Virus record (IMG/VR): IMGVR_UViG_2675903278_000002
Source of the DNA: a virus
Lineage: Duplodnaviria > Heunggongvirae > Uroviricota > Caudoviricetes
Reading direction: 5' to 3' (one strand)
Length of the DNA stretch: 64,000 bases
Shown here piece after piece: positions 6,611-59,977 of this stretch. Within the stretch, counting starts at the first letter, position 1, and each line of letters starts with the position of its first letter. The position numbers were made by a program, and so were the translations under genes. The notes below the pieces were generated by a model. It searched no databases and had not been told where the DNA came from. It saw nothing but the letters and a program-made list of their open reading frames with translations.

Positions 6611-6928
6611 GTATTCCTCCTGATGGCCGTGATGTAGGAAGGCCATCAATCTCCTCTGTTCAAACTGAGTTTTCGACTCAAAAATTACTTTAAAAGGCTA
6701 TAGCCCATTACGTGTGCATTATCAAATTGTGTACGGCATATCACCGTACTTGTAATATAGAGGTCATTGTTACTTTTTTCAACAGACAAATACAAGCTAT
6801 GATTGCCAATTGTTAATCACAACCTACCATTTAACCTTTACACCGCAGCCGTAGGCATTTAGGCTATATCACATATAAGAAAACAAGTTGTTTCAGACGA
6901 TAATTATATACGCAAAGGGAACTCTCCA

Positions 6929-7597
6929 ATGACCAAGATCTTTGTGGTTGGCGGCACAAAGGGCGGGCCTGGCAAATCCACCGTTGCCCAGCAAATTGCC
7001 GTTTGCCTGAAAGTCAAAAAGAAGAAGAAGGTTTATATTACCGATATAGATATTCAGCGCACGACAACGAGCTGGTGTGAAGACCGTCGACAGAACGAAG
7101 ACCTTGAGCTGATTCCTTTTGCATACGTTCAGGATGACATCATTAAGCACCTAAAATCGCTTCAGGGTAGAGCTGAGTTTGTAGTGGTAGATGCTGGTGG
7201 CTTCGACTCCGAAATTCAGCGACAAGCGATGCTGATGGCTGACGTTATCATTATCCCGCTGCGTCCTAAGCGTCGTGATTTGAAATCTTTACGTGACATC
7301 GATCCTATTATCGACAATGTTCGCAATGTAAACGATAAAGTGAAGGTCCGCGCGGTCATGAACCAGTGCCCGGCTTTGCCATCACAAGTGTCTCGCATTC
7401 TGGCGGCTAAAGAGATTGTTGAGACGTTTGGAATCGAGTCTGCGCCAGTCAATCTATATAACCGCAACGTCTATGATGATGCGGAAGAGTCTGGTCGTTC
7501 TATCTTTGAAATGACCGGTAGCGAGCGCGACAAAAAGGCGGAAGCCGAGTTTGAAGAATTTGTAGATTATCTGTTGAGTCTGGAGGAAGAAGAATAA
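6929..7597 (+). CDS. parA: ParA-family partition ATPase (small type Ib)
   Basis: Deviant Walker A GGTKGGPGKST; 222 aa; followed by a small RHH protein gene. Confidence 0.85.
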   Translation: MTKIFVVGGTKGGPGKSTVAQQIAVCLKVKKKKKVYITDIDIQRTTTSWCEDRRQNEDLELIPFAYVQDDIIKHLKSLQGRAEFVVVDAGGFDSEIQRQAMLMADVIIIPLRPKRRDLKSLRDIDPIIDNVRNVNDKVKVRAVMNQCPALPSQVSRILAAKEIVETFGIESAPVNLYNRNVYDDAEESGRSIFEMTGSERDKKAEAEFEEFVDYLLSLEEEE

Positions 7598-7956
7598 TGT
7601 CCATGAAAATGGGTGACCTAGCAAAGCGCAAAGAGCCTGATGCACCGGCTAAGAACACAACTCCTTTGCGCCAACCAGTCAGACCACAGGGACGCCCGAC
7701 TCGTGGCAAAGAGAAAATTAAAAGCCGCACAATGTCACTGGAGGACGAATACTTCGAACTGCTGGAGATGATGAAGTTCATCCCTCGCTTCGAGAAGTTC
7801 ACTCGTTCTGACGTGATTCGAGCAGCCATTTTCCATCTGGCAGAGAAGTCACCGCAGGAAATCGAGGACATCGTGAAATTGAATGAGGCGATCACCGCTG
7901 CCGATGTCACGATGCGTACCGATGAAATTAAACGCGAGTTGATGAAGAAAGGGTGA
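7597..7956 (+). CDS. Partition centromere-binding protein (ParG/ParB-like, ribbon-helix-helix)
   Basis: Start overlaps parA stop; basic disordered N-terminus plus C-terminal RHH-like segment MSLEDEYFELLEMM...RSDVIRAAIFHLAE. Confidence 0.5.
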   Translation: MSMKMGDLAKRKEPDAPAKNTTPLRQPVRPQGRPTRGKEKIKSRTMSLEDEYFELLEMMKFIPRFEKFTRSDVIRAAIFHLAEKSPQEIEDIVKLNEAITAADVTMRTDEIKRELMKKG

Positions 7957-8007
7957 TTATATTGGGCGTTTGTTACGCCCAATATATGAGTTGAAGGATA
8001 GACACCA

Positions 8008-9714
8008 ATGGAATCGATAGAAGTATTTTTAAAAAATTTTTTGGACTCAGATCATCGGGTTGCTGTCATAAAAGGAAATTGGGGAGTAGGTAAAACGCAT
8101 TATTGGAATAGCTTTTATACTAAACATTCTAAAAAATTAGATTTTAATGCATATTCATATGTTTCTTTGTTTGGAATAAATTCTATTGGAGACATTAAAA
8201 AAGCTCTTTATCATTGTGCCACACCAATTAATGAAAAGAAATATAAAGAACTGATTTTATCTGAAACGGATCGAACTATGATTCGTTATAGAAATGGGTT
8301 TTGGGGATGGTTGAAATACAACTCCTTGTCAAAATTTTTAATACATTTTGGAAAGAACGATTTTTTTGGGTTCAAAACTGATAATCTGCTGTCATCTCTT
8401 GAGTATAAATTTGTTAATAATTATTTGGTTTGCATTGATGATATTGAACGAAAAGGTAGTGCGCTAGAAATTAAAGAGATTATGGGGGTAATTGATGAGT
8501 TGGCAAGAAGAAAAAATTGCAAGGTTGTTCTAATATTAAATGAAGATAACTTACATGAAGAAACTGCACAACAACAGTTTTTAGAGTATAGAGAAAAAAT
8601 AATTGATGTGGAAATAAAATACGATCCCACGCCTGAGAAAAACTTAAGAAAAGTTTTTTATGAGACTGACCCTGATTTTCTTTTGTTAAAAAACCTAGTA
8701 AATGATTTAAACATCAAAAACATTAGAATATTAAATAAAATAAAATCATCTCTAGTTATATTTAGAGATGTGCTAAAGTTAGCAGAGGATAAGGTTAGAG
8801 AAAGTTTTATTAATAGATTGGTCTTATTTTCAGTGGTTTACTATTTTGGTGTTCCTAGCGTTGATTATGCTTCATTTAAGGAGTCAATCAAAAATATACA
8901 TGCATTCGACTATATGTTAGATGATAAAGATGAAAAGGAAGAAGTTAACTCTGTATATTCATTTGTTAATAGCCTTGATGTTATTTATGAACGAGCAGAA
9001 AGTGCTTTCGATGATGATATAGATTTTTACCTTAAGAACGGTTATGTTTCTTCTGAAAGCAATATTCTAAATATAATAAAAGAAAAAAATGAACAATATA
9101 GAGATAATAGGGTTTTATGTGAGGTTTATAAAATTTGGGATGTTTTTAGAAACTCTTTTAAAGATAATGAATCAGAGTTTATTTTTCAAATTGAGCGCGT
9201 AATTAACGATAGTCTGTTGCGTATACCAATTGGACAGTTCGTAGGTTTAATAAATGTCCTAATTAAATTGGATAGAGATTGTAATAATATTATAGAGGCA
9301 TATGCAGATGCTTTTGTTAATAAAGACAATGCGTATGCTACATTTAATTCTTTGCGAGTAGAGATCTTCGGAAATGAAGAATTAGGTTTCAGAATTGAAA
9401 AAAAATTGAAAGATAGAAATCCAGATGACTATAACTTAGATAAAATTATAAAAAAAATAGCTGGTGGAAGATTTAACCATAGTGATGTGAATATTCTTAA
9501 CAGTTTTTCTAAAGATGATTACGTAAACTGGATATTATCCTGTGATCAGGATGCTTTGAATTTAGTAGAAGAGACTATGCTCAAGTTCAAGGGTATGCAA
9601 CACCCGACAGACGAACAGAAGAGCATCACTGATAAAGCAATAGAAGCTTTGGAGGAAGTTGCTTCAAAATCAACACTTAATAAGCTGCGTGTTAATAAAA
9701 TACTCAATCATTAA
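8008..9714 (+). CDS. KAP-family P-loop NTPase
   Basis: Walker A GNWGVGKTHYW near the N-terminus, diagnostic of KAP NTPases; 568 aa; coding sequence visibly far more AT-rich than neighbours. Confidence 0.75.
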   Translation: MESIEVFLKNFLDSDHRVAVIKGNWGVGKTHYWNSFYTKHSKKLDFNAYSYVSLFGINSIGDIKKALYHCATPINEKKYKELILSETDRTMIRYRNGFWGWLKYNSLSKFLIHFGKNDFFGFKTDNLLSSLEYKFVNNYLVCIDDIERKGSALEIKEIMGVIDELARRKNCKVVLILNEDNLHEETAQQQFLEYREKIIDVEIKYDPTPEKNLRKVFYETDPDFLLLKNLVNDLNIKNIRILNKIKSSLVIFRDVLKLAEDKVRESFINRLVLFSVVYYFGVPSVDYASFKESIKNIHAFDYMLDDKDEKEEVNSVYSFVNSLDVIYERAESAFDDDIDFYLKNGYVSSESNILNIIKEKNEQYRDNRVLCEVYKIWDVFRNSFKDNESEFIFQIERVINDSLLRIPIGQFVGLINVLIKLDRDCNNIIEAYADAFVNKDNAYATFNSLRVEIFGNEELGFRIEKKLKDRNPDDYNLDKIIKKIAGGRFNHSDVNILNSFSKDDYVNWILSCDQDALNLVEETMLKFKGMQHPTDEQKSITDKAIEALEEVASKSTLNKLRVNKILNH

Positions 9715-9722
9715 TAGATTAT

Positions 9723-9789
9723 GACCTGCTTCCGTATGTATTTAATAAGTTACTTATTATTTGTATATACAGAAGCAGGTCTTTTAAAG
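9723..9789. terminator. Large hairpin (10 bp stem GACCTGCTTC/GAAGCAGGTC, AT-rich 39 nt loop) followed by TTTTAAAG; putative terminator; same stem sequence recurs at 56751..56815
   Basis: Inverted repeat read directly in sequence downstream of the KAP NTPase stop. Confidence 0.4.
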
Positions 9790-9895
9790 ACACCCACCAG
9801 AACAAGTCCCTTCCGTTTCCACTTCCAAAAACTGCCACCAGTCGCTATCATCCGCTCATTGTGATAAGTAAGTAACTACCTACCAGGTGAGCCAC

Positions 9896-10636
9896 ATGAG
9901 CCAAATCTTTTTCGATACCATCGACAACGACCAGTACGACTTCATGACAGAGTGGAATACCGCTGTTATGGACAAGTGGGTTGCTGAAAACATTGGTTTG
10001 TCGCGCTGCAAAGACGAGGCTGAACTGTTTGAGACGAAGTGGTTTGATTACCGCGATATGCATCCTCTCATGGCCACCTGTCTGTTTACGGAGGCATACA
10101 AACGTCAGTACTCAAATATCATGCTGACGCACGGTCGTGAACACTTTGAAACAGCTCCGTTCACCACCGGGTTAAAACGCTTGCCTTATCAGGAGTTGTC
10201 GACTGCTAATAAAACGTCGCTATGGAAAGCACGCCAGTTTGCGGATCGCTATTGCTGCTCATACGACTACTTTATCTCCACTGTTCTTTCCGCAGCTGCA
10301 CGACGTCTGTGGGACAAGCTGCCTCGCCCACAGCATTTGTGGCAGCCAGAACTGATTGAGATATTTGAAGAGAAATTAGCCAGACGCGCAACAACCCGTC
10401 TGGATGACTCTCTGGTTAGCTTTAAGCATATGGGAGACATGCAGTTCAACCCGATTCAGGAAAGCTATTTTGAGTGGATTCTGGAGCGTTTGCGCACCAT
10501 CCCTCGCAGCAAGCGCATACGCGCAATTTTCTCCGCTATCTGGCTAATGGAAATCGTTCCAGAGCGCCTTATTTCCGACCACTTTCCAGAAGAACTGGAA
10601 GAAGCACGGCGGTTTATTGATCCCCTATCTAATTAA
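9896..10636 (+). CDS. Hypothetical protein
   Basis: ORF 9887..10636; AGGTGA RBS-like sequence 5 nt before ATG 9896. Confidence 0.5.
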   Translation: MSQIFFDTIDNDQYDFMTEWNTAVMDKWVAENIGLSRCKDEAELFETKWFDYRDMHPLMATCLFTEAYKRQYSNIMLTHGREHFETAPFTTGLKRLPYQELSTANKTSLWKARQFADRYCCSYDYFISTVLSAAARRLWDKLPRPQHLWQPELIEIFEEKLARRATTRLDDSLVSFKHMGDMQFNPIQESYFEWILERLRTIPRSKRIRAIFSAIWLMEIVPERLISDHFPEELEEARRFIDPLSN

Positions 10637-10679
10637 CTAATACTAGAAAACAATTTGTTTAAAAAACAAAGGAAAGCAC

Positions 10680-12020
10680 ATGACCGAACTTTGCCATACA
10701 GGACGCGGGCTGTCCGAAGAGTTTGATGAAGATTTCCAGAACAGACTGACGGCATATTTTTGTCGTGATCACGAGTTTCTTACTCGTGCGGGAGATCTGG
10801 TTGTGCCTAGCCAATTTGCCAATGCGGCCAATGCCATATTGGTTAATATGGTTTCGGGCTATTACCGTATGTACAAGAGCGCGCCCTCTTCATCTGCAAT
10901 TCTGGATATGCTTAAGCGTGCGAAACGCGATAAGACTATCCGTGAGGAACTATTCGCCGATGTTGTTGCTGCGTTTAAGCGCATCCTTGCAGAAAAATTG
11001 TCCGATACCTCGTACATGGTTGACCAGGTATCAACCTTCGCAAAAAGCGTAGCGTTTGATGATGCTCTGATTAAGGCTGCTGAACTGAAAGAGAAGGGCG
11101 ACTTTCAGGGGGCGATGGCAATCATGGCCAAGGTTCAGCAGATTGGATCGAACGAAGCGACCGGAATCTATGACTACTACACCTCCGCAAGTGAGCGATT
11201 GAAAGCGCGTGAATATGAGGCTTCAGAGGAGTATGTACCAAACAGTATTACAACTGGACTCCCTCTTCTCGATAGGTTGCTGTACCAAAAAGGCTGGGCA
11301 AAGCGCGAAATGGTGCTCTTCATGGGGTTCGCTAAATCCGGTAAATCGACCGCAATGGGTGAGTTTTCCATAAACGCAACGCTTGCTGGCTACAATGTTC
11401 TGTATCTCTCGCTGGAGGTTCACACCAACATTTTGTCCGACCGTTTTGATGCAAGATTGTCGGAGACGGAAATGTCCAAGTTGGTGGAACGGCGCGATGA
11501 AGTTCATCGTAAGTTGGCAGAGTTGGGAGCCTCTAAGGGGATTGGTAGTTTGTGGGTTGTTGAGCGTCCGTCAGGAAGTATGTCACCGGCAGATCTGGAC
11601 CGTATGCTTAACAGCATGAAAGCCAACGGCATGGTGCCTGATATGGTTGTTGTCGACTACGCAGATTTGATGCGTGCCAGTTATGACCTTCGTGATGATC
11701 GCGCCAACATTCGTAGTATCTACACCGATTTACGTGCTCTTTATGACAAACATAACGTTGCTGGAATCACGGCATCGCAGACAAACCGTGAAGGTGGCGC
11801 GTCAGAAGTTGCCACAATGATGCACGCCGCCGATAACATCGAAAAAGTACGTATTGCTGACCTGGTAATAACGATCAACAAAACCGAAGAAGAAGAAGCG
11901 AAAGGAGAGGCTCGTCTCTACTTTGCTGGTTCACGTAACCAGCAGGGTGGGATCAGCATTCGCGTTAAACAAAACCTCGAACAAATGCGTTTCATTGAGC
12001 GAATCTTAGACGTTACCTAA
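10680..12020 (+). CDS. DnaB-like replicative DNA helicase
   Basis: Walker A GFAKSGKST in a RecA-like C-terminal domain; 446 aa; adjacent to primase. Confidence 0.8.
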   Translation: MTELCHTGRGLSEEFDEDFQNRLTAYFCRDHEFLTRAGDLVVPSQFANAANAILVNMVSGYYRMYKSAPSSSAILDMLKRAKRDKTIREELFADVVAAFKRILAEKLSDTSYMVDQVSTFAKSVAFDDALIKAAELKEKGDFQGAMAIMAKVQQIGSNEATGIYDYYTSASERLKAREYEASEEYVPNSITTGLPLLDRLLYQKGWAKREMVLFMGFAKSGKSTAMGEFSINATLAGYNVLYLSLEVHTNILSDRFDARLSETEMSKLVERRDEVHRKLAELGASKGIGSLWVVERPSGSMSPADLDRMLNSMKANGMVPDMVVVDYADLMRASYDLRDDRANIRSIYTDLRALYDKHNVAGITASQTNREGGASEVATMMHAADNIEKVRIADLVITINKTEEEEAKGEARLYFAGSRNQQGGISIRVKQNLEQMRFIERILDVT

Positions 12021-12101
12021 AAAATAAGCGTGGAGAACACCTCCACGCTTGATTCATTTGTGAAACAACTTTTCTTTTGCCAAACCACAAAAGAAAAACA
12101 C

Positions 12102-13280
12102 ATGAGCCTTTATGTTATATCAACATTTAGGTTGGTCACAATATTGCCTGTTAAAAGTGGAATTATCGTGAGCGAACTGAAAGAGCTAATTACCGAATTA
12201 GATTTTGAACAATGGTTGGACACTGAAGGTATCGTTTATCGACGTGGAGGCGTGAGTGCTCGCGGTCGTGAAGTGAATATCAAGGAGTGTCCGGTATGCG
12301 GCAGCTCCAACTGGAAGGTATATTTCAATCTGACCAGTGGCGTAGGCAAATGCTTCGCTGGTGATCATCCCGAAGAGATTCAGTTCAATAAGCTGGTCTT
12401 CCTCAAGCACTACAGCGGCAAATCACGACGACAGTTCGAGGAATATGTGCAGAACGCTCTTCTTTCCCAGGGGTGGGCACCAAAGAAAGAAGAGATAGTG
12501 CTTGCAAGCACAGTCGAGTTAGAGGGACCACTTGCACTCCCTCGTCATTACGAACTTCCTATAGATGGTCGTCTTCCAGACTATCTGGTTGAACGAAACA
12601 TATCGCCTGAAATGGCAAAGTATTTTGACCTACGATACTGCGTCGAAGGCAAGCACGCTTATGTAGATCCGTATACAGATCAGGTTAAAGGACAGATATT
12701 CGATATGCGAATACTGATACCGGTTTACGATCTGGATGGGGTAATGAAGACATTTCAGGGGCGAGACATTACCGGTACAGCTGAACGTCGCTACCTCTTT
12801 CCTATGCAGCTTCCAGCTTCAGGTAAGTTTCTCTACAACGGCCATAATGCGGTCGGCAAACAGACTGTAGTTGTCTGTGAGGGGGCGTTCGATGTTATGG
12901 GGGTTAAACGAGCTATTTTTGATGAAGAAACATTACGTGATTACGTGGAACCGATAGGAACGTTCGGGATGCATCTATCTGGTAACACCACTCAGGATGC
13001 AGAAGATCAGTTAGGCGCGTTCCTGACGCTCAAGGCGCGTGGGTTACGTAATGTGATCATGATGTGGGATAGTGAAAAGCAAGCTATACGTAATACGATG
13101 GCCGCAGCCAGGCGACTGACCAGTATTGGTCTTAATGTCAAAGTGGCGTGTTTGGGCGAGGAAGGACTCGACCCGGGCGATGCAACGCCAGAGCAAATCA
13201 TCAAAGCCTATTATCGGGCAAAACCGTATACCAAGCAGTTGGAGTTACAAAGCAAGGTTTTGGGCATTAAGGCTCTATGA
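12102..13280 (+). CDS. DNA primase (zinc-binding domain plus TOPRIM)
   Basis: CPVCGSSNWKVYFNLTSGVGKCFAG zinc ribbon; TOPRIM-like VVVCEGAFDVMGV; ATG 12102 is preceded by the recurrent AAAAACACATG context; the longer GTG 12030 start lies inside a hairpin. Confidence 0.75.
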   Translation: MSLYVISTFRLVTILPVKSGIIVSELKELITELDFEQWLDTEGIVYRRGGVSARGREVNIKECPVCGSSNWKVYFNLTSGVGKCFAGDHPEEIQFNKLVFLKHYSGKSRRQFEEYVQNALLSQGWAPKKEEIVLASTVELEGPLALPRHYELPIDGRLPDYLVERNISPEMAKYFDLRYCVEGKHAYVDPYTDQVKGQIFDMRILIPVYDLDGVMKTFQGRDITGTAERRYLFPMQLPASGKFLYNGHNAVGKQTVVVCEGAFDVMGVKRAIFDEETLRDYVEPIGTFGMHLSGNTTQDAEDQLGAFLTLKARGLRNVIMMWDSEKQAIRNTMAAARRLTSIGLNVKVACLGEEGLDPGDATPEQIIKAYYRAKPYTKQLELQSKVLGIKAL

Positions 13281-13358
13281 TAACAATCACCTTTAAAATA
13301 AGTAGATGATTACTTATCTTTCTGTGAGAATACTTTCATCTGTTAGCTAGGAGTTGGT

Positions 13359-14135
13359 ATGAAAGACGAAATTCAGAAATTAGCCTGCGACATCATTGAT
13401 AAAACTGGTTTAGAAATCAGCGAGAGCAATCGGCTAGACATCATTGAAAAAGCCGTAAAAACAGCAATGGATCATATCGCCACTCGTTTGGTCGAGATCC
13501 CGCTACCAGGGCTACCTTATCTGAAAGTTGAGTTACACGTATGGGGTGAACCTTCTTGTTCACGGCGTTCTGCATTAGTTGTTTTTATTAGCAAAGAAAA
13601 CCCGCTCAGTCTTAAAGTGCAGGTTGGTGCATGGATGGATGGAAAAGTGATCTACACAAATACCGTTTTTTGTCTTTCAAACGACGAAACTATTGAAGCG
13701 GCCATTCAAGAAGCAGTTCTAGCAATGCGCAGCAGCGGTTTGATGAAGAATAACTACGAAGAGTACTTGCGTTCGATAAGTGGTGAAAAGACATTATCTC
13801 TGAAAGCAGATTTCGTTACCCCGAAAAATCTGTTGGAAGTCTTGCTTAATAAAGGGGCTAATGATGCCGTAAATGTAATCAGAGAGAGTGAGTATGCGTC
13901 TCTTTGCGACATGTGCAAAAGCCAGTTGGATCTGGTGCATATCGTTATTGATGCTGGGAAGGCATGTGATGGCGTAATGGCGGAATTTGCTTGGAAGGTG
14001 GTCAGGATTGCTAACGAATTACCGATGATAGAGCAAGAGGCCAAATCATACGCCACCAATCATGTCACAGAGCTTCTTGTCCCCTATCGCTTAGAAAGCA
14101 ATCAGCGCAAGATGGTTAGCTGGGGAAGTTGGTAA
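13359..14135 (+). CDS. Hypothetical protein
   Basis: 258 aa ORF with GGAG RBS upstream. Confidence 0.5.
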   Translation: MKDEIQKLACDIIDKTGLEISESNRLDIIEKAVKTAMDHIATRLVEIPLPGLPYLKVELHVWGEPSCSRRSALVVFISKENPLSLKVQVGAWMDGKVIYTNTVFCLSNDETIEAAIQEAVLAMRSSGLMKNNYEEYLRSISGEKTLSLKADFVTPKNLLEVLLNKGANDAVNVIRESEYASLCDMCKSQLDLVHIVIDAGKACDGVMAEFAWKVVRIANELPMIEQEAKSYATNHVTELLVPYRLESNQRKMVSWGSW

Positions 14136-14190
14136 TCTCTCCGCGCGTCGTTTTTTACGCAAATAACGATAGGTAAGTACAAGATTATTT

Positions 14191-14673
14191 ATGGCGGTAG
14201 TTGTGAAAGCTGATTTGTCAAAAATCCCTTCTATTTCAGGAAATAACGGTTATTCACTTCGTTGTGAGGAAGTAAAGATAAACGGTGAGTCGGCATATTG
14301 CAGCTATTCCGTTTGCCAGCACACCATTCTTGCCTTCAAAGAAAACCGTCTTCCTCGAACTTCTTTCCAGTCGTGCGCAACCGCTATTAAAGCAGGCAAA
14401 TGCAAGGCGTTAAAAATGATGGTTGAAGAGATTCGTAAAGGAGAATCTCTGTATTTCGAAGATATGACCGCGCTCATTAAGGAGGTTGAAGAACGGAATA
14501 AACAAGCCAGAACTATAAAACGAAAACGTGACAGTGTAACGATTAATAGCATGGTTAAGAAGAGCACCACATCACAAACAGCGATCACTGACGTGTATGC
14601 GGCGTTGCTTGAAGAAACAACAAAAGAAACACATGAGCAAATCGATCAACATATGGAGGCAAAACAACAATGA
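14191..14673 (+). CDS. Hypothetical protein
   Basis: 160 aa ORF; stop overlaps the ligase start. Confidence 0.5.
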   Translation: MAVVVKADLSKIPSISGNNGYSLRCEEVKINGESAYCSYSVCQHTILAFKENRLPRTSFQSCATAIKAGKCKALKMMVEEIRKGESLYFEDMTALIKEVEERNKQARTIKRKRDSVTINSMVKKSTTSQTAITDVYAALLEETTKETHEQIDQHMEAKQQ

Positions 14674-15992
14674 AAAAGTTGATCGCACTTAAGCATAAGC
14701 TGGACGAAATGAAAGCTATGGGAACCAATGCAAAAAAAGAGGCATTGGCCAACATGGATGACTTCGAGCAAAGCATGGTTTCATTGATGCTCAACCCTTT
14801 CATCCGTTTTGGGGTAAAGAAATACAAAGTGGCAGAGCCGCTTAGTGAGTCCGTCCCAAGTGACGAAAAAGCCATTGATATACTGAATAAGCTGGCCTCT
14901 CGCGAGCTGACGGGGAACGCAGCAATAGCTGCTGTTGAGTCTATCGTGGCGTCAATGTGCGCCGATGGGCAGGACGTGTTCCGTCGTTTCCTCTTAAAAG
15001 ATCCGAAAGCTGGCGTTGGGATTAGCCTATGCAACAAGGTTTTTGAAAATCCCATTCCGAAATTTGAGGTGCAGCTGGCGTCACCGTATAAAGAAAAAGG
15101 CGACAAATACCCCTTCAAGCCAAATCCTAAAGCCAAATGGCCGATGATTGGCAGCCTTAAGCTCGATGGTTTGCGAGTAATTTGTGAGGTTATTGTTGAC
15201 GAGGAAGAGGTGAACTTCCTTTCTCGTACTGGTAATCCAATCACGTCTCTCGATCACCTAAAGCCAGCCATGCTCGAATTAGGCAAACTTTCAGGCCACA
15301 AACACATCTTCTTCGATGGTGAAGGAACAGCCGGTTCATTTAACCAGTCCGTATCTGCATTGCGCAAAAAGAACGTGCAGGCAATTGGCGCTATTTATCA
15401 TGTTTTCGACTTCTTCCTACCGGAATGGCGGGCACAGGCTAAATCCAAAGAGTATGCAAAGACAGGTATGAAGCTGAAAGAGCGCCTGGCTATTCTCGTG
15501 GCGTTGTTCAAAAACGATCGCAGTGAAGACTACGCGCAAGACATTCACCTACATCCGTTCTACATCATCCATAGCCACGAAGACTTCATCGAACGCTTCA
15601 TGAAACGCCTGGACGATAACGAAGAAGGGGAGATGGGCAAAGATCCGAACTCTGTTTACGAGTTTAAACGTACCCGCAGCTGGTGGAAGTTAAAAGACGA
15701 AGATTCAGAAGATGGTGAAATTATCGACTTTGAGCCGGGCGACCCGGACTCTGGTTTTGCCAACACACTTGGAAAAATTGTTATTCGTCTTGAAAACGGC
15801 GTCATCGTTCGTGCGAGCGGCATTAAGCATAAATATCTGGACGAGATCTGGAACAACAAAGAGAAGTACCGTGGTCGTATTGTCGAGGTTCATTGTCACG
15901 AGAAAACACCGGACGGCAGCTTACGCCACCCACGACTGAAATGGCCGCGTTGCTTACGCGATACAGAAGATCGAATCGGAGATAAAGAATGA
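14670..15992 (+). CDS. ATP-dependent DNA ligase
   Basis: Adenylation motif KxDG in GSLKLDGLRV; 440 aa. Confidence 0.8.
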   Translation: MKKLIALKHKLDEMKAMGTNAKKEALANMDDFEQSMVSLMLNPFIRFGVKKYKVAEPLSESVPSDEKAIDILNKLASRELTGNAAIAAVESIVASMCADGQDVFRRFLLKDPKAGVGISLCNKVFENPIPKFEVQLASPYKEKGDKYPFKPNPKAKWPMIGSLKLDGLRVICEVIVDEEEVNFLSRTGNPITSLDHLKPAMLELGKLSGHKHIFFDGEGTAGSFNQSVSALRKKNVQAIGAIYHVFDFFLPEWRAQAKSKEYAKTGMKLKERLAILVALFKNDRSEDYAQDIHLHPFYIIHSHEDFIERFMKRLDDNEEGEMGKDPNSVYEFKRTRSWWKLKDEDSEDGEIIDFEPGDPDSGFANTLGKIVIRLENGVIVRASGIKHKYLDEIWNNKEKYRGRIVEVHCHEKTPDGSLRHPRLKWPRCLRDTEDRIGDKE

Positions 15993-16168
15993 TGCTCGGC
16001 TGGATGATTGCATTTTTAGCGGTTGGTTTTTTAATCGGTATTGTGGTGATGTCCAGTTGCATCAATGACTACATTAAAAGCGGTGTTATAGAACGACGCG
16101 GTCGTATTTATCGCATTGTAGAAATAACCCGCACAGTGAAGGAGATTAAGGATGATCGTATTAAGTAA
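15989..16168 (+). CDS. Small membrane protein (59 aa), translationally coupled; not in supplied ORF track (below 60 aa)
   Basis: ATGA overlap with ligase stop; hydrophobic N-terminus MMLGWMIAFLAVGFLIGIVVM then RRGRIYRIVEITRTVKEIK. Confidence 0.35.
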   Translation: MMLGWMIAFLAVGFLIGIVVMSSCINDYIKSGVIERRGRIYRIVEITRTVKEIKDDRIK

Positions 16169-16367
16169 GCGGGAGAAGGAAACGCTTCATGAAATCAGTA
16201 AGTGGCCGGAGTTCCCTGAGTACTGGAAGCCTAAAACGCGAGCTAAGTTAGAGCGTTTAGGGTTGGTTGCAAACGTTTCTGAAACGTGGTGCTCGGCCAA
16301 CTACCAGTTAACTGATAAAGGGAAAGTATTGCTACAGCAATTAGTAGAATCAGGAGTGTTAAAATGA
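16152..16367 (+). CDS. Hypothetical protein
   Basis: 71 aa ORF; overlaps neighbours at both ends. Confidence 0.4.
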   Translation: MIVLSKREKETLHEISKWPEFPEYWKPKTRAKLERLGLVANVSETWCSANYQLTDKGKVLLQQLVESGVLK

Positions 16368-16516
16368 TTCCATACATCTCATTAGCTTTTATGGGTGGCT
16401 TCCTTATCGGCTTCGGCATCTGTCGTGATTTAATTAAGCAGGAACTTAAAACCAAAACACTGTGCATCGGAAAGCGTGTGTATCGGGTAGTTCATGAAAC
16501 AAAGGTTAGAAAATGA
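16364..16516 (+). CDS. Small membrane protein (50 aa), apparent paralog of 15989..16168
   Basis: ATGA overlap at both ends; hydrophobic N-terminus then GKRVYRVVHETKVRK, resembling RRGRIYRIVEITRTVK of the upstream small protein. Confidence 0.3.
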   Translation: MIPYISLAFMGGFLIGFGICRDLIKQELKTKTLCIGKRVYRVVHETKVRK

Positions 16517-16803
16517 GCAATTTAACTTCTTGGGACTGGTGGTTGGCCACCTATTTCTTAGCGGCCGGAGTCGCATTCGCCTTTTACGTAGGTCAGTTAG
16601 TCGTAAAACTGCTGCTGATTAAATTTGCCAGTCATAAACGTATCGATGATGGTCTGTGGCGTCTTGGCACCCTGGTGGAAACTCGCTACGGGCAACTTAA
16701 GGAGAACGAAACCATTACTATCCAAGCGAAACGATTCACTGCCACCATCACAAGAACACCTAGTCGTAGAGTGGCCTTGATCAAAAAAGTTACAACCGAA
16801 TAA
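16513..16803 (+). CDS. Hypothetical small membrane protein
   Basis: 96 aa; N-terminal transmembrane segment WDWWLATYFLAAGVAFAFYVGQLVV. Confidence 0.4.
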   Translation: MSNLTSWDWWLATYFLAAGVAFAFYVGQLVVKLLLIKFASHKRIDDGLWRLGTLVETRYGQLKENETITIQAKRFTATITRTPSRRVALIKKVTTE

Positions 16804-17579
16804 AAATACAATGATAAGTATTTACTTACTTATCTTTTATGTATAAGATGACTTTGTTTTCGTTGAGACGCGACTGTTTGAACTTAAATACAAGTGCAAA
16901 CGAAGAAGTCTATCTGGCAGTAGCCTAATAAGCCAAACACCAGCGAGGTCAGTTTCCAGCCTCGTTACCGAAATGGGACACACTGAGCGAGTGTGATTGC
17001 AGAACGCAGGAGGGAACATGAGTGTTCCCTCCGATGAAGTAACAGAATGGGCGGTCGGTATATTTTCAACTCAATATGACTCCCGGATTCTTAGCCACTG
17101 ACCGCCCATCCTGTTACGTCATTTTGTTCAATTATGTCGTTTATACTGGGTTAAAAAGCGGCGGCGTAGCCCGGCTGGTATGGTTAGCCAGCACACAACG
17201 TTGAGGCCATTACATTTTTATCAATTCTAAGGTTCTATTCACAGAGATACCGGCGAGCGTTGATATGTAACATGTTGGGCAAACATTCAATCGGAGTAGT
17301 GGCCTCAACGTTGTGAAGACAGGATTGTTGTGTAGGTTTAACCACTGTTGCCATTGGTGCCTGTTTTCACAACAAATGATTCCATACATCACATTGTATA
17401 AATTACAAAGTAGGCGCTGTCCTCAAAAACATCATCTACTTAAAGATTTTGTCTTCTATTGAGCGAAGTCGAAAACGTCTGGCACTAACGAAAAGTGCAA
17501 GTAGCGGTGCGTTTCCTGGCAGAAACTAACACCGCCGCGATTGGCACTGTTGAGTAATAAATACTGTCAGTGCTGAATT

Positions 17580-17654
17580 GATGGTGTAGCTCAGCGGTAG
17601 AGCAGTTGGCTGTTAACCAACTGGTCGGTGGTTCGAATCCACCCACCATCGCCA
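17580..17654 (+). tRNA. tRNA-Asn (anticodon GTT)
   Basis: Manual fold: 7 bp acceptor stem GATGGTG/CACCATC, D-arm TAGCTCAGCGGTAGAGC, anticodon loop CTGTTAA, T-loop GGTGGTTCGAATCCACC, 3' GCCA. Confidence 0.75.
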
Positions 17655-17656
17655 AT

Positions 17657-17732
17657 GCCGGTTTAGCTCAGTTGGTAGAGCGCCTGCCTTGTAAGCAGGA
17701 TGTCAGCGGTTCGATCCCGTTAACCGGCACCA
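17657..17732 (+). tRNA. tRNA-Thr (anticodon TGT)
   Basis: Manual fold: acceptor GCCGGTT/AACCGGC, D-arm TAGCTCAGTTGGTAGAGC, anticodon stem CCTGC/GCAGG with loop CTTGTAA, T-loop GGTTCGATCC, 3' ACCA. Confidence 0.75.
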
Positions 17733-18052
17733 ACACAACAGGTAAGAGCATTGGGCGAATCGGCGATACTGACCCACAAGCCCGTAAATCGATAGAGTCA
17801 GACCAGTGCTCTTACCGTTGTGAGGAAGTGCAGCTCTTTGAAGCAACCAGAAGATAAGCATCTGGCTTCACAACACAACGATAAGATCATTACGGTTAAT
17901 CGTCGTTCATGTGCACAATGACTGGTCGAAAGGTAGTGATCTTACCGTTGTGATGAATGCACAGGCTGATGTGCCGCAACTACAGTAGTGCGCGCTTTGC
18001 GGGGCTTGCTACAACCCTGTGTCGGAGTTCAGCACCGACCATCACAATAGCT

Positions 18053-18139
18053 GGAGAGTAGGGAGCATGGTGCTCAAGCGGTCTTGAAATCCGTCCCATT
18101 GTGCAAACGATGATGGTTCGATTCCATTACTCTCCGCCA
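18053..18139 (+). tRNA. Class II tRNA with long variable arm, most likely tRNA-Ser (anticodon TGA); anticodon stem imperfect
   Basis: Acceptor GGAGAGT/ACTCTCC, T-loop GGTTCGATTCC, 3' GCCA, long variable region; anticodon loop CTTGAAA only with a mismatched closing pair. Confidence 0.55.
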
Positions 18140-18292
18140 GACACAGCGTTGAGCGGTTTGGCCTTTTAATCACCCAGATTAAGACTCCGCTAACATAAAC
18201 CAGACCGCTCAACGCTGTGATAGACAATTACGGCAGACGTTCTTAACCATAGCTTGCTAACATCCTAGCAACACTTTTTTCAGCGCAAAATT

Positions 18293-18318
18293 CAAAGGGG
18301 CTTCGGCCCCTTTTTTAC
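18293..18318 (+). terminator. Rho-independent terminator downstream of the tRNA island
   Basis: GGGGC-TTCG-GCCCC hairpin followed by TTTTTT. Confidence 0.7.
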
Positions 18319-18442
18319 TGGGTTGACTCCAGAATATTTCCAGGTATGGTTTTACCACTTTTGGTCTTCATTTAGCAACGGCAGCATTAGACTGCCTGCA
18401 TGTGGGTGACAGGATGTGGCAGAAAAACATGGAGATAAGCCA

Positions 18443-18997
18443 ATGAATAAGCGCAACCTCAATATTCTTGCCTCTCTGGTGATCATGCTCGCTCTGACGG
18501 GATGTAACGAATCGGAGATCGACAAAATTACCTTAATAGGTAGAGATAAAAGCGATCTTGCACAGAACTATAAAGCCCAGTTCCAAGAGCAAACACCCAG
18601 TATTGAGGTATTCGCTCTTCAAGATAAAAATGCACCGAATGAACAGGAACCACATACGTATGGAAATCTCATTGATGGAAAGGTTGAATCGTCTTTAACG
18701 ACAAATGTCGGTAAGTATACGTTCATGCAGATCGGTGAAATGCTGACAAGGGAGTACGGAAAACCGGTAGCAACGAAAGACAGAATTTTCGACCAAGAAG
18801 CTATCTCAGGTATGGACTGTATTGAGACAAAGACCTGTGGTGCAGGCAAGTATTATGAAGTCTATCGAGGGAAGGATCGTTTAGTAATGGTGATTAACGG
18901 TGCAGGCTTTGTGAACGAAAAAGAGGGTGTAACATTGCTTTCTATCACCGATAAGATGATTAAAGTTTCACGCTTGAAAGAAGACAAACGCAAATAG
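18443..18997 (+). CDS. Putative lipoprotein
   Basis: MNKRNLNILASLVIMLALTGC signal peptide with lipobox; GGAG RBS before ATG 18443. Confidence 0.55.
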   Translation: MNKRNLNILASLVIMLALTGCNESEIDKITLIGRDKSDLAQNYKAQFQEQTPSIEVFALQDKNAPNEQEPHTYGNLIDGKVESSLTTNVGKYTFMQIGEMLTREYGKPVATKDRIFDQEAISGMDCIETKTCGAGKYYEVYRGKDRLVMVINGAGFVNEKEGVTLLSITDKMIKVSRLKEDKRK

Positions 18998-30232: not shown

Positions 30233-30503
30233 AGAATTATGGCGCTTGTTGAGGAAGTCACTCCTCTTACGCACTTTGTTTTGCCATGCCGGCAGTTAGC
30301 TTCTGCCTTTGACTATTCATGCGGCAACCCCGCATTTCGCCACAATGGGCAATTCACTTTTATGGAATAAACTGGCCGTTGTGTCGATTTAATTAGCATG
30401 GCCTTACCATGCTAATTTATTCAACTTGTACAATCCTGCAAATCTATCCACTCAGGCTTACACCGTCTTCGTTATTGTAGAAATGAGGATCATCAGCGTT
30501 GAA

Positions 30504-30719
30504 TCAGCTTAGAGCAACGACATTTGCTGCTGCTGGGCCTTTAGCCCCATTCTCGATAGAGAATTCGACCTGCTGGCCTTCTTCCAAAGTGCGGAAATTA
30601 TTACTCTGAATTGCCGAAAAATGTACAAAAACATCTTTACTGCCATCAGCAGGAGAAATAAAGCCAAAGCCTTTATCAGAGTTAAACCATTTTACTAAAC
30701 CAGTCATTTTATTAGACAT
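30504..30719 (-). CDS. cspA: Cold-shock protein (CspA family)
   Basis: [21 protein letters not shown]... RNP1-like motif; 71 aa from the internal ATG at 30719. Confidence 0.85.
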
Positions 30720-31048
30720 AGATATTACCTTCTTAATTTTGTGAGCCACATAGTGCGGCGAGAATTTGATCTGTATAGATTGGGACTTACTTAGGCACTT
30801 AAGGAGGAGACTCACGAAGAAGGGAAATCAGAAGATAACACTGAACTGAGACTGCTTTACTAAAACTGCTTACATAAGGTCTGTCTTGCAAACCAACGAT
30901 GCTATTAACGCATACCCCTTCTTTTCATGCAACCTTTATTTTTCAAAGATAACTAATTTTTGTCACCATTGGTTTAGTAAACGTTAACGAACCAGACGAT
31001 GCCAGACACCTTTACAGAGAACAGATGCCCGCCAATTGGCGGGCATCA

Positions 31049-37216: not shown

Positions 37217-37246
37217 TCAGGCGTCCAGTTGGACGCCTTTTTTATC
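37217..37246 (+). terminator. Rho-independent terminator
   Basis: CAGGCGTCC-AGTT-GGACGCCT + TTTTTTAT. Confidence 0.75.
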
Positions 37247-37293
37247 GCAATTATCTTATTAAGAAAACAATTTGTTTAAAAGGATAAGAAAAC

Positions 37294-38601: not shown

Positions 38602-38813
38602 TGGCATTAACACTGGCAGGTCTGGAAATCGAGAAAACAAGCGGCTACTGGCGTGCTAAGGGTTTCAAGCAGCCTGGCATTCTTGAGCGTCTGGAACGTG
38701 AAGATGGGTATATCGTCCACCAGCGGCGTGAATGGCGTATGTACGATCCAGAAACAGGAAAACTGACTACAAAAGCCGGAACACTTTGGGGTCTGTTGAA
38801 GAAAATACACTAA
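38601..38813 (+). CDS. Hypothetical protein
   Basis: 70 aa ORF with start overlapping the upstream stop. Confidence 0.35.
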   Translation: MALTLAGLEIEKTSGYWRAKGFKQPGILERLEREDGYIVHQRREWRMYDPETGKLTTKAGTLWGLLKKIH

Positions 38814-48938: not shown

Positions 48939-48973
48939 GGTGGGGGATATCCCCACCTTCTCTTTGATTTGTA
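48939..48973 (+). terminator. Terminator-like hairpin downstream of nrdA
   Basis: GGTGGGG-ATAT-CCCCACC followed by T-rich tail. Confidence 0.55.
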
Positions 48974-49039
48974 AGCCTTGTTTAAACACATAAGATAACA
49001 ACTTGTTTAAACGCACCAAAAAAGAAAAAGGAAAAACAC

Positions 49040-54417: not shown

Positions 54418-54426
54418 GGAGTTCTG

Positions 54427-54984: not shown

Positions 54985-54988
54985 AACA

Positions 54989-56729: not shown

Positions 56730-56750
56730 TTTGTTCTGGCGTCTGTAATT

Positions 56751-56815: not shown

Positions 56816-56890
56816 TATCAGAGACTCCAGACCTGAACATCACTACAGAATCCACTAGAACCCCTTCCCAGACGCTTTAAAATCGATTTT

Positions 56891-57145: not shown

Positions 57146-57179
57146 TAGATAAGTACAAACTATTCATAAAGTGAATTGT

Positions 57180-57700
57180 AAGTGCTAAGATCTGATAGTT
57201 TCCAGTCGTAGACTGGAGACTCGACCTGATGGGTGGGGGTAAGCGTCACTGGCGTCAGGTTTAAAAAAGCTCACTACCAGCGTAGAACCGGTGCCGTTTA
57301 GGTGTCGGGGAAGGGGGAACCAAAGTGAGCGGAGACAAGGGTCACTTTATGATTGTCGAGTCTGGGGTGTTTCGAGAGGTTGAATCCAGTACTCCCCTTC
57401 ATAAAGTGTGGGAAGATCTCGGTTCTGGGGTGCTGTCATCCATAACTTCCCAAGTCTAAGCTGGCAGTAGACTTAGGCCATAACTTTTCAGGTTATGAAA
57501 CGACCAGGTTGGTGAGGGATTTTTATACTCACCTCCCTGGGAGAGTATTACCTGAAAAGACAACCTCTCACTTCGTTCGAGGTGAACTTCACTCACTTCG
57601 TTCGTTCAGTTCAGGTTTATAAAAACCTGTTCTGGGAAGTAATTTGTTTATTTTAATAATTATTAACACGCACGCGTGTGCGCACGCGCGAGGAAAAAAA
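57180..57700 (+). ncRNA. Structured non-coding region (candidate ncRNA or secondary/lytic origin); strand unassigned
   Basis: About 500 bp without a credible ORF; nested inverted repeats (CTTTTCAGGTTA...TACCTGAAAAG; GGTGAG...CTCACC), direct repeats TCACTCACTTCGTTCG x2, alternating purine-pyrimidine tract CACGCACGCGTGTGCGCACGCGCG. Confidence 0.25.
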
Positions 57701-57729
57701 TCGGCGCGGCGCTTGATTCAGGAGTTTAT

Positions 57730-58323
57730 ATGACGACGAAGACACCAGCCCGATCGCAAGAAAAAACTCGCAAAAAAGCCAAAAACAAAAATTCTCCCCG
57801 CACCAATTCCACAACGCCTGTCGTAGAGTTCAATCCCCAGCTTAAAACCGTGAAAATCTTCAGTGATGGCTCTTGCCTTAAAAATCCGGGTGGCCCGGGC
57901 GGTTACGGTATAGTTCTCCAGTATCGTGGTGAGGAACGCGAGTTCTCAGATGGTTTTCATAGCACCACCAATAACCGCATGGAGATGATGGGGGCACTTA
58001 TCGGGCTGGAGCGTTTGAAATATCCATGCAACGTTATTTTGCACTCTGATAGCCAGTATCTGAAAAACGGCATGACACAGTGGATGAAATGGTGGAAACG
58101 CAATGGATGGGTGACTTCTGACAAAAAACCGGTAAAGAATGTTGATCTGTGGAAGCGTCTGGATGAGGCTGCAAGTCGACATAATGTTCGCTGGAAGTGG
58201 GTTAAAGGTCACGCCGGGCATCGTGAAAATGAAATATGTGATCGACTCGCGAAGATCGCAGCTTTTTCCGCAGCAGATATGCCTCACAAGAAAGATATTG
58301 GTTTTGTTTACAACAAGCAGTAA
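57730..58323 (+). CDS. rnhA: Ribonuclease HI
   Basis: RNase H motifs [43 protein letters not shown]; AGGAG RBS before ATG 57730; basic N-terminal extension. Confidence 0.85.
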
Positions 58324-58468
58324 GTAAGTGTTTACCTATCATTTTAAATCATGTATCTTATCAGCGTCAGGATGACAATGTGTCGGTAAGACACAGTTCC
58401 AGGATGGAACGAGAAAGGCGGCTGGCAATCGCCAGCCGCAACTCTTTCTGACACTGGATGGAGTCCAC

Positions 58469-58963
58469 ATGGCACGTCAAACCTATTTCACTTCTGCAAC
58501 TAAACGTCCTCGTTCACTACGTCAAATTTTGGCCGAATTATTTAGCGGTCGTGTTCTGTCACGTCTTGATGAACTAGAGACTGCCGTTCGGTTGCTGAAT
58601 GAACGTTTAGATAAGCAAGCGTCAGTTGTTGCGAACGTGGGGGCGATTGTTACCTCTGGTTCTTCACGCGAAGCGAAAAGTACACGGCCTTTAGTGAAGG
58701 AGAAAAACAACAAGGACAGTTCGAATGGAAAATTTTCAAAGAAAGAGGCTGAAACCAATGGCCTACGTTCTCATTATAGTTTCACTGGCGACGATAGCCG
58801 TTCCAGCCGGCCAGAGCCTTTTGATGCCGGGTTCATCCATCACCACACCTCCGTCGACGACAATTACCACCACTCCAGTAGAGCGTCCTGTCACTCTGGA
58901 TGGGATGACGGTGGATGCGATACCTCAAGTTCATCCAGTTACTCAGGATCATGCTGTGACTAA
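58469..58963 (+). CDS. Hypothetical protein (C-terminal half low-complexity; true extent uncertain)
   Basis: 164 aa ORF; overlaps an alternative frame encoding a signal-peptide protein (58758..58976). Confidence 0.25.
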   Translation: MARQTYFTSATKRPRSLRQILAELFSGRVLSRLDELETAVRLLNERLDKQASVVANVGAIVTSGSSREAKSTRPLVKEKNNKDSSNGKFSKKEAETNGLRSHYSFTGDDSRSSRPEPFDAGFIHHHTSVDDNYHHSSRASCHSGWDDGGCDTSSSSSYSGSCCD

Positions 58964-58972
58964 GGCGGTTGT

Positions 58973-59161
58973 ATGAACTGGTTTTCAAATCACTTTGGAA
59001 AAATTTGGCTGGCAATTCTTGCCCTCATGGCCGCCGGTTGGGTATCGAACATTATAAAACTTGTTTGCTCTGGCGATCTCCAGTTTCAGGCTGGTATGAC
59101 CTTGGCTCGTGTTGTTGGGATTTTTGTTTTTCCAGTTGGTTCGGTACTTGGTTATTTCTGA
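58973..59161 (+). CDS. Small membrane protein
   Basis: 62 aa with two hydrophobic segments; ATGA start/stop overlap. Confidence 0.3.
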   Translation: MNWFSNHFGKIWLAILALMAAGWVSNIIKLVCSGDLQFQAGMTLARVVGIFVFPVGSVLGYF

Positions 59162-59254
59162 CGGCTGTTAGTGCATATGCATTGACCATCTCTGCGTAAG
59201 CAATTTATGTAATTAGAAAACAACTTGTTTTGACAAATAATAAAAGGAAAACAC

Positions 59255-59680
59255 ATGTTAGGTTTCTTCAAAAAGAAAACTCGTAAAGCTGTTATCGAAG
59301 TCAAAAAAATGGAGAACCGTGATGCGGTTGAGGCCACCGTGTGGGGCGCGTACATGATCTCCTATGCCGACGGCACATGTGACGCAAAAGAAATTGCCAT
59401 TCTTGAGAAGACAATTGCAGCTCTGCCTGCGTTTTCTCCGTTTGCTGGTGAAATTGCCCAAATGAGCGCCAATATCCGTGCTCGTTACGAAGCGTCCCCT
59501 CGTTCTGCTAATGCACAGGCTATTCGTGAGCTGTCTGATATTGCGGGTACTCCAGAGGCGGTCGATGTTCTGTGTCTGTGCCTTGATATTGCCGACCAAG
59601 ACGGTATTGGCGAACAAGAAGAGCTGGCCCTGAAAAAGATCGCACAGGCGCTTCAGTTGTCACTGGATGCTTATCTCTAA
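59255..59680 (+). CDS. Hypothetical protein, possibly TerB-like
   Basis: 141 aa; segment VDVLCLCLDIADQDGIGEQEELALKKIAQALQL resembles TerB-type helical domains; GGAAAACACATG start context and upstream AAACAACTTGTTT palindrome. Confidence 0.4.
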   Translation: MLGFFKKKTRKAVIEVKKMENRDAVEATVWGAYMISYADGTCDAKEIAILEKTIAALPAFSPFAGEIAQMSANIRARYEASPRSANAQAIRELSDIAGTPEAVDVLCLCLDIADQDGIGEQEELALKKIAQALQLSLDAYL

Positions 59681-59838
59681 TGCTTGAGAGATTCCGGCTT
59701 GTGACCGTCATTGCTCTTCTGGTGATGGCGGTGTTGGTGGATTTTACGGGAAAGATGATGTCTGTCATTTCTGATGGCGTCCTCATTGGTCTGGCGATCT
59801 ACTTCGCTTATCCGCTAGTCCGTAAAGCAACGTGTTAA
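59680..59838 (+). CDS. Small membrane protein (52 aa), not in ORF track
   Basis: ATG overlapping the upstream stop; two hydrophobic segments; followed by a terminator. Confidence 0.3.
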   Translation: MLERFRLVTVIALLVMAVLVDFTGKMMSVISDGVLIGLAIYFAYPLVRKATC

Positions 59839-59841
59839 TGA

Positions 59842-59870
59842 CAAGGGCCAAATGGCCCTTGTGTTTCGTT
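59842..59870 (+). terminator. Rho-independent terminator
   Basis: CAAGGGCC-AAAT-GGCCCTTG followed by TGTTTCGTT. Confidence 0.65.
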
Positions 59871-59977
59871 GACCGAAATAGAGAGTTTGCACCTTTACGT
59901 TTAGCTTGCTCCCCTTTTATGCCACATCACAATAAAGCCAATAAGAAAACAACTTGTTTAAGCATTAGGAAAAACAC

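Follow-up and report, generated by a model that had tools for sequence, protein, structure and literature searches.

A promoter-embedded dyad element marks units that are off in the plasmid state of SSU5/pHCM2-like phage-plasmids and has a candidate winged-helix reader

The stretch of 64,000 nucleotides in IMG/VR virus record IMGVR_UViG_2675903278_000002 (hereafter the window) raises the question of what a short palindrome, AAACAA-N-TTGTTT, does in front of gene after gene, and which regulator reads it. The window belongs to an Escherichia coli phage-plasmid of the SSU5/pHCM2-like type, with 96-99% identity to Escherichia phage Cyrano (pLF82), CMS-2020a and NZ_CP020118, about 80% to Salmonella phage SSU5 and about 77% to Klebsiella phage-plasmids. 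The original prediction had taken the palindrome as a candidate operator of a global regulator, a dimeric repressor that keeps lytic or replicative genes off in the plasmid state, and had proposed an XRE-type regulator encoded in the window as one candidate binder. The enrichment of the element, its conserved footprint and its quantised positions overlapping promoters support a regulon-wide operator. The reading that we put forward, tentatively and as somewhat short of probable when taken as a whole, is that the operator sits in the promoters of nearly all lytic-cycle units and is read by an 88-amino-acid winged-helix protein, the candidate binder, within a proposed regulatory cascade.

Exact copies of AAACAANTTGTTT were found at five positions of the window (6881, 10648, 37265, 59218 and 59947) against 0.04 expected from dinucleotide shuffles, and none of 100 shuffles held five or more. 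Allowing one mismatch gave seven matches where 0.45 were expected, the two additional sites being TAACAACTTGTTT at 48996, upstream of nrdB, and AAATAATTTGTTT at 23030, upstream of a cobT-like gene, the latter overlooked in the original prediction. With two mismatches the excess was gone (11 matches versus 6.3 expected), and neither an over-fitted position weight matrix (PWM) scan nor searches of the window at two to three mismatches gave further convincing sites. The recurrence upstream of at least six genes that had been claimed is thereby confirmed and extended to seven sites, with three coordinates shifted by one nucleotide (48996 for 48997, 59218 for 59217 and 59947 for 59946). Likewise, the extra half-site TTGTTTAAAC reported at nrdB is real but lies at 48978-48987 and not at 48977. 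The sites stand in front of partition, replication and nucleotide-metabolism units as had been stated, and also in front of early and late (terminase) transcription units.

All seven window sites (Table 1) are intergenic and share the orientation of the downstream gene. The distance from the end of the palindrome to the ATG is, in order of position, 35, 19, 19, 16, 31, 24 and 18 nt, and a Shine-Dalgarno sequence lies within this interval each time. An asymmetric 17-mer, WAGWWAAYAANTTGTTT, matched all of them without mismatch. As the flank common to the seven sites is one-sided, at the 5' end, the element is an asymmetric 16-mer and not a pure dyad; the original prediction missed this asymmetry, and its dyad symmetry holds for the core, the AGA being present on one side only. 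The full form is AGA-AAACAA-N-TTGTTT and the minimal core is AAACA-N3-TGTTT; variants such as AAACAACATGTTT indicate that the essential core is two 5-bp arms placed 3 bp apart.

The original prediction had named two grounds on which it should be given up, a motif frequency at chance level and loss of the sites from related genomes. The former is answered by the five exact copies above, and the latter by a footprint that is conserved while its flanks have diverged. Exact AAACA-N3-TGTTT cores number 11 in Cyrano, 14 in SSU5 and 14 in pJN2-26, with 0.04-0.14 expected from shuffling of these three, and 11-14 per genome across four complete relatives; at one mismatch about 20 sites per complete genome were obtained against 3-4 expected. 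Among the further sites of the relatives are two in tandem, spaced by 25 bp and lying just upstream of the gene for the small terminase, where the late operon begins, and a cluster in front of small early genes. Across the helicase- and parA-upstream regions of 80 IMG/VR loci, TAGAAAACAA-N-TTGTTTAA is invariant, with scrambled flanks and a free central base. Orthologs of the parA site are kept in SSU5 and pJN2-26, those of the cobT-like site are perfect in SSU5 (42729) and pJN2-26 (91040), and the nrdB site is kept in Cyrano, SSU5 and pJN2-26. In the most diverged relatives that were found, namely Nissabacter-type and Enterobacter elements and a Klebsiella pneumoniae plasmid, motif and architecture persist; 40 kb of the Klebsiella plasmid hold 11 exact sites, or 14 when one mismatch is allowed. 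Yersinia pestis pMT1 has retained the pair at the late promoter together with a single further site. The motif is unchanged across lineages whose proteins share 35-80% identity.

The element holds two fixed positions relative to sigma-70 promoters, many of which are of the extended -10 type. Almost all sites of the early regions adjoin such an extended -10 (TGnGATAAT, TGnGAAAAT or TGnTATTAT), and the link to promoters emerged solely from the relatives that carry such extended -10 elements. Seven sequences were used to count coding-strand extended -10 elements near exact sites. The palindrome follows the end of the hexamer at a distance of exactly 13 nt in 13 cases (18 at 11-14 nt) and precedes its start by exactly 19 nt in 10 cases, where a background of about one extended -10 per kb gives an expectation of about 0.06 at any given distance. 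With transcription assumed to start about 7 nt past the -10 hexamer, the palindrome in the first, proximal arrangement would span about +8 to +20 with its centre near +14 and the AGA on the promoter side, and that in the second, distal arrangement about -44 to -32, upstream of the predicted start, with its centre near -38. A Shine-Dalgarno sequence follows the proximal sites, in most cases within a few nt; all 41 distinct ones point the same way as the gene behind them, 38 with the AGA on the 5' side. Distal sites lie directly past the terminator hairpin of the upstream gene and are flipped, the palindrome preceding TCT, so that the AGA again points toward the -10. Both sites, 51 bp apart, are present at some promoters and a single one at others; distal-only promoters predominate in the diverged Klebsiella lineage.

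The window itself offers several traces of this arrangement. The -10-like hexamer CACAAT (59928-59933) ends exactly 13 nt upstream of the site of ORF 59978, and the cobT-like site follows by 12 nt an extended -10-like TGcTACATT at about 23009-23017. At parA, a GATAAT hexamer lies 5 nt 3' of the palindrome. About 25 nt upstream of the 37265 site is a hairpin resembling an intrinsic terminator, GGCGTCCagttGGACGCC followed by a T-run (about 37220-37243), and a similar hairpin after nrdA implies that the nrdB site belongs to a separate nrdB promoter.

The Cyrano lysogen transcriptome (PMC9928086, S1 Table), with a median of 9.8, shows what the genes behind these sites do in the plasmid state. Readings for motif-preceded genes were 7.1 for terS, 21.1 for helicase, 7.8 for cobT, 5.7 for CYRAN_58, 12.9 for nrdB, 7.0 for CYRAN_85, 7.1 for CYRAN_87 and 5.7-25.5 for the early genes, in contrast to 96 for XRE, 133 for repA and 140-590 for toxin-antitoxin genes. 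Distal-only promoters are likewise silent. Units marked by the motif are therefore off in the plasmid state, parA excepted, an outcome with which repression and a missing activator both fit.

The reader of the element is very improbably the XRE-type regulator, acting as a dimeric repressor on AAACAA-N-TTGTTT to hold genes off in the plasmid state. It is a helix-turn-helix (HTH) protein expressed about 10-fold over background in the lysogen, the Cyrano authors annotated it as a putative repressor, and the site at 23030 lies about 530 bp from its start. Against this, SSU5 has no homolog (tblastn E > 5) despite its 14 exact sites; the protein has fallen to 56% identity in pJN2-26 and 48% (partial) in Klebsiella CP068974 with the motif unchanged; and the element is absent from the XRE promoter region (22500-22750), where a different palindrome is found. 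This divergent promoter carries GGTAAGTGCTTACC plus two half-sites, and pJN2-26 has a perfect GGTAAGTACTTACC at the same position. The second palindrome, GGTAAGTnCTTACC (extended form ATAGGTAAGTnCTTACCTAT), is itself recurrent, with nine sites in the window at two mismatches or less against 1.3 expected, and its 12-nt core GTAAGTnCTTAC occurs at up to one mismatch in 7-17 sites per related genome (about 0.9 expected). It is likely the operator of XRE. It often lies at gene ends right past stop codons, including inside the late operon, and possibly plays a role there like that of phage stoperators.

The AAACAA-N-TTGTTT element is rather probably read as duplex DNA, since it occupies two quantised positions within the polymerase footprint, occurs in both orientations and has a perfect dyad with a free centre. 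Within this reading the best candidate for the binder, as yet unproven, is CYRAN_123 (SSU5_130), a protein of 88 amino acids encoded outside the window, immediately upstream of the late (terminase) promoter, which carries two tandem sites. Its family is the most conserved small protein of these elements, with 78-89% identity where another candidate, the FljA-like protein considered below, has 34%, and its recognition helix does not vary, just as the DNA motif does not. The AlphaFold2 (AF2) model of CYRAN_123 is a winged helix (pLDDT, the predicted local distance difference test score, of 81.6), for which Foldseek gave MarR, MepR, MftR and small archaeal winged helix-turn-helix dimers as the closest solved folds (template modelling score 0.68-0.76), the top matches being APE_0880a, AF1382, MepR, MarR, NadR and MftR-DNA.

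In the relatives, a copy of the second palindrome, AGTAAGTnCTTAT, lies right past the -10 of the operon that runs from ParB to the winged-helix gene, and its presence at both this promoter and that of XRE suggests a cascade. In the proposed scheme, XRE would repress the winged-helix operon, and once lysogeny breaks down the winged-helix protein would act on about 20 AAACAA-N-TTGTTT promoters. A dimeric sequence-specific protein would bind the sites and gate RNA polymerase, which it would occlude at +14 and -38, possibly with cooperation between paired sites. The outcome could be the shut-off of early and middle promoters or their co-ordination with late expression.

Several points weigh against this scheme. 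The transcription starts are predicted ones; no convincing -10 stands 13 nt from the helicase, parA and TerB-like sites, and for those of parA and the helicase a canonical sigma-70 scan of positions 1-20000 gave no -35/-10 pair. In spite of its perfect site, parA is expressed in the lysogen, with a reading of 50 in stationary LB and log2 values up to 10 elsewhere. The assignment of the winged-helix protein as binder is circumstantial. Its gene is at background in the lysogen (7.8), and it therefore cannot alone account for the silence of the strong extended -10 early promoters in that state. No AAACAA site was found at the promoter of its operon, so that the usual clue of autoregulation is missing. 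The one-sided AGA is unexpected for a symmetric dimer, and arm centres about 7-8 bp apart are short for recognition helices in successive major grooves. For a repressor acting in the plasmid state, the expression evidence is mixed: the marked genes are at background in the lysogen, but parA is expressed and the best DNA-binding candidate is silent there. Among other small conserved proteins, CYRAN_117, 112, 37, 62, 46 and 116 had no informative Pfam, NCBIfam or PHROG match, and CYRAN_117 further had no PDB match and no detectable homolog in a motif-bearing genome.

An unlikely but substantial alternative moves the control to the messenger RNA. The FljA-like protein (CYRAN_114 / SSU5_121) would bind the proximal sites in the leaders as RNA and silence the lytic genes post-transcriptionally in the plasmid state, blocking the adjacent Shine-Dalgarno sequence and setting off decay of the mRNA, in the manner of Salmonella FljA at the fliC leader. 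FljA reportedly binds to fliC mRNA's operator region and blocks its translation (PMC4122451, PMC2652032). The FljA-like protein of Cyrano gives a full-length match to PF03614 (E = 1e-80) and is about 40% identical to flagellar FljA proteins. Its AF2 model predicts two tandem Sm domains, each of a helix plus five strands, with no HTH, and the top PDB matches of the model are all Hfq. It is a core gene, present in 831 plasmids including 341 of Klebsiella and 62 of Y. pestis; these hosts lack flagella or motility, which rules out fliC as its target there. Besides, this gene and that of XRE are the only lysogen-expressed genes with a homolog in the diverged Klebsiella element, and XRE is absent from SSU5. 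The strict sense orientation of the proximal sites (41/41, with the AGA in place in 38/41), most of them close to the Shine-Dalgarno sequence, would suit an RNA operator, and two promoters retain solely the A-rich arm beside it. The inner 9-mer matches the fliC leaders that FljA targets (TCAAGTTGT, 1/2000 shuffles; Atlantibacter, 25/2000), a suggestive result from a post hoc test, and is negative against the fljB leader and other leader types; the full-site PWM scored no significant match to fliC leaders (120/2000 and 231/2000 shuffles), and by local alignment (z = 0.4) the resemblance seen by eye failed. The distal sites, upstream of the predicted start and flipped, are as well conserved as the proximal ones, and promoters that have these alone are silent too. 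Perfect dyads whose central base is free are more usual where duplex DNA is recognised. Protein and site do not co-vary, the motif being identical where the FljA-like protein is only 34-35% identical, and in the diverged elements no such co-variation could appear because the motif never changes. No AAACAA site was found at the promoter of the FljA-like gene, and Rfam gave no match at the sites. The seven window leaders fold no better than shuffles (z -1.0 to +1.4), with the palindrome hairpin rarely in the minimum-energy structure, and no changes compensating single-arm variants were seen among the sites of related genomes; uncompensated arms and unfavoured hairpins together argue for recognition of sequence rather than of RNA structure. 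That the proximal sites are RNA operators, or are read as both DNA and RNA, under a genome-wide silencer of the lytic programme that belongs to the FljA family and has an Hfq fold, is doubtful. If true, lysogeny would be kept largely at mRNA leaders by a family so far known only as the single-target repressor of flagellin phase, possibly partnered by the winged-helix regulator reading the same sequence as duplex at -38 and +14.

Two other explanations do without a regulator encoded by the phage-plasmid. A conserved Enterobacterales host factor may bind the site, the phage-plasmids having adopted a common control element; this we consider improbable. It would account for a motif that stays invariant, amid the divergence of most phage proteins, in elements whose hosts are Escherichia, Salmonella, Klebsiella, Enterobacter, Yersinia or of Nissabacter type, and the core partly resembles the site of integration host factor (IHF), WATCAANNNNTTR. 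The likeness breaks down at two informative positions, IHF sites are neither palindromic nor so uniform, no host regulator with a fitting consensus is known to us, and a phage protein with an invariant recognition helix is at hand. A little less probable again is that no trans factor is involved and that the element is a cis block of a duplicated promoter cassette, which descent and a role in the promoter have preserved, e.g. as initial-transcribed or -35/UP-like sequence, translational enhancer or terminator tail. The fixed -10 spacing and the conserved sequence between -10 and palindrome (consensus tAaTtA.aCcaAtaAGA) do look like paralogous cassettes, and in distal sites the right arm opens with TTG close to position -35, after terminator hairpins. 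Yet in orthologous comparison the cassette flanks diverge while the 16-mer is invariant, the same dyad stands at two unrelated promoter positions in opposite orientation, and perfect dyad symmetry plays no part in such cis functions, nor is the RNA hairpin stable.

Table 1. Positions of the AAACAA-N-TTGTTT sites and of the associated features (window coordinates unless another sequence is named)
Feature	Position	Strand	Remark
Proximal-type site AGA-AAACAAGTTGTTT	6878..6893	+	upstream of parA (ATG 6929)
Proximal-type site AGA-AAACAATTTGTTT	10645..10660	+	upstream of DnaB-like helicase gene (ATG 10680)
Proximal-type site AGT-AAATAATTTGTTT, one mismatch	23027..23042	+	upstream of cobT-like gene (ATG 23062)
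Proximal-type site AGA-AAACAATTTGTTT	37262..37277	+	upstream of DUF7238 gene (ATG 37294)
Proximal-type site AGA-TAACAACTTGTTT, one mismatch	48993..49008	+	upstream of nrdB (ATG 49040)
Proximal-type site AGA-AAACAACTTGTTT	59215..59230	+	upstream of TerB-like gene (ATG 59255)
Proximal-type site AGA-AAACAACTTGTTT	59944..59959	+	upstream of ORF 59978
Half-site TTGTTTAAAC	48978..48987	+	same decamer again 25 bp on, at 49003-49012, inside the nrdB site
Terminator-like hairpin GGTGGGGgatatCCCCACC then TTCTCTTT	48939..48965	+	directly past nrdA stop; read from sequence
XRE-type regulator	22113..22499	-	HTH protein; tested as binder and rejected
Perfect GGTAAGTGCTTACC palindrome	22531..22544	+	XRE promoter region; second, distinct recurrent motif
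GGTAAGTnCTTACC sites	4282, 18343, 19284, 22531, 32838, 46556, 56108, 58323, 63293		
FljA-family gene ('repressor of phase-1 flagellin')	Cyrano 100780-101301 (L004:780-1301)	-	outside the window; SSU5_121; pJN226_0046
Tandem-site region without obvious ORF	SSU5 90740; Cyrano 94605; pJN2-26 25869; L094 18891-18928		conserved
Late-operon leader hairpin	Cyrano 95-135; pJN2-26 38641-38680		

Some further features were noticed around the promoters. Early promoters of the GATAATAACACC type (e.g. Cyrano 95775-95800) carry on the reverse strand a TGtTATTAT, a divergent and overlapping extended -10; reverse-strand TGtTATTAT lies 12 nt from the palindrome in five cases and may drive antisense transcription into the upstream gene. 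A conserved region (Table 1) has two tandem sites 25 bp apart after a promoter-like region (-10 TTATAT / TTATAA) and no obvious downstream ORF, and may hold a small RNA or micro-peptide gene under the same control. At about 93685-93693 of SSU5, in the spacer of an early extended -10 promoter upstream of site 93713, lies TTATCCACA, which we take to be a perfect DnaA box and which has one mismatch in Cyrano. Between the late-promoter sites and the start of the small-terminase gene, a GC hairpin AGAGCGCatggacGCGCTCT is followed by GTGTGTTTT, and its look of a leader terminator suggests that late expression also needs antitermination. In the stretch from CYRAN_46 to cobT (window 22751-23062), the small gene adjoining XRE reaches log2 10.8 inside macrophages in published data, and the cobT-like gene, 98 nt further past a hairpin and the 23030 site, stays at 5.9, an approximately 30-fold drop across the gap that contains the site.

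Apart from these, the window encodes on its minus strand (30479-30897) a full-length cspA thermoregulator (Rfam, 186 bits) upstream of a cold-shock protein gene, annotated as cspG in a relative, and two tRNA genes at 17580-17729 (Rfam, 73-76 bits); these were the only Rfam matches in the window. Annotation of the latter stretch in relatives gives tRNA-Asn, tRNA-Thr and sometimes tRNA-Ser, and with the tRNA regions of phages P7 and D6 it shares about 86% identity.

A dispersed phage operator regulon is a known kind of system, and what is unusual here is the fixed dual-position architecture on extended -10 promoters. A close parallel, drawn in the original prediction, is C1 of phage P1, also a phage-plasmid, in which one scattered operator stands upstream of replication, partition-related and lytic genes and the copies are oriented relative to the promoters that they control. 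The operators of P1 C1 are 17-mers, asymmetric and unrelated in sequence, to which the lysogeny repressor binds as a monomer-type protein. Homology to the P1 system was noted neither in sequence nor in proteins, though no search aimed at C1 was made. The present element differs in its 13-bp dyad core with a one-sided AGA, in its two quantised promoter positions and in having a candidate binder only. The stoperators of mycobacteriophage L5 gp71 number in the tens and are 13-bp intergenic sites, nearly all in one orientation, which silence genome-wide and act away from promoters by blocking elongation inside operons. Our sites resemble them in being asymmetric, co-oriented with transcription and placed in short intergenic gaps, but are embedded in promoters at about -38 and +14, past terminators; the second palindrome GGTAAGTnCTTACC, at gene ends inside long operons, looks more stoperator-like. 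As for MarR-family repressors, whose palindromes overlap -35/-10 or +1, the candidate shares the winged-helix fold and would bind a short dyad that overlaps the polymerase footprint. Unlike them, it has 88 amino acids, no long dimerisation helices, no Pfam match and no site at its own promoter, and it would control about 20 promoters instead of one divergent operon. With the Salmonella FljA/fliC pair the system has in common a PF03614 core gene, proximal sites between the predicted start and the Shine-Dalgarno sequence, and, by the post hoc comparison, the inner 9-mer; it departs from that pair in about 20 targets versus one, distal sites outside the leader, full-site similarity that is not significant, the many hosts without flagella and the lack of co-variation.

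The motif sequence occurs in no paper of the searchable literature, and the SSU5/pHCM2 literature that we found discusses neither promoters or operators nor the control of lysis versus plasmid maintenance. In clinical Escherichia, Klebsiella, Salmonella and Enterobacter, SSU5/pHCM2-like phage-plasmids are a common find; resistance genes are among their cargo (PMC9600943), and pMT1 of Y. pestis shares part of their backbone. The 16-mer together with its fixed positions provides a signature by which the family and its promoters can be recognised in assemblies, and the XRE protein annotated as 'repressor' likely reads a different motif. For this family, the motif defines the lytic regulon at the resolution of single promoters and yields two candidate regulators and a proposed cascade.

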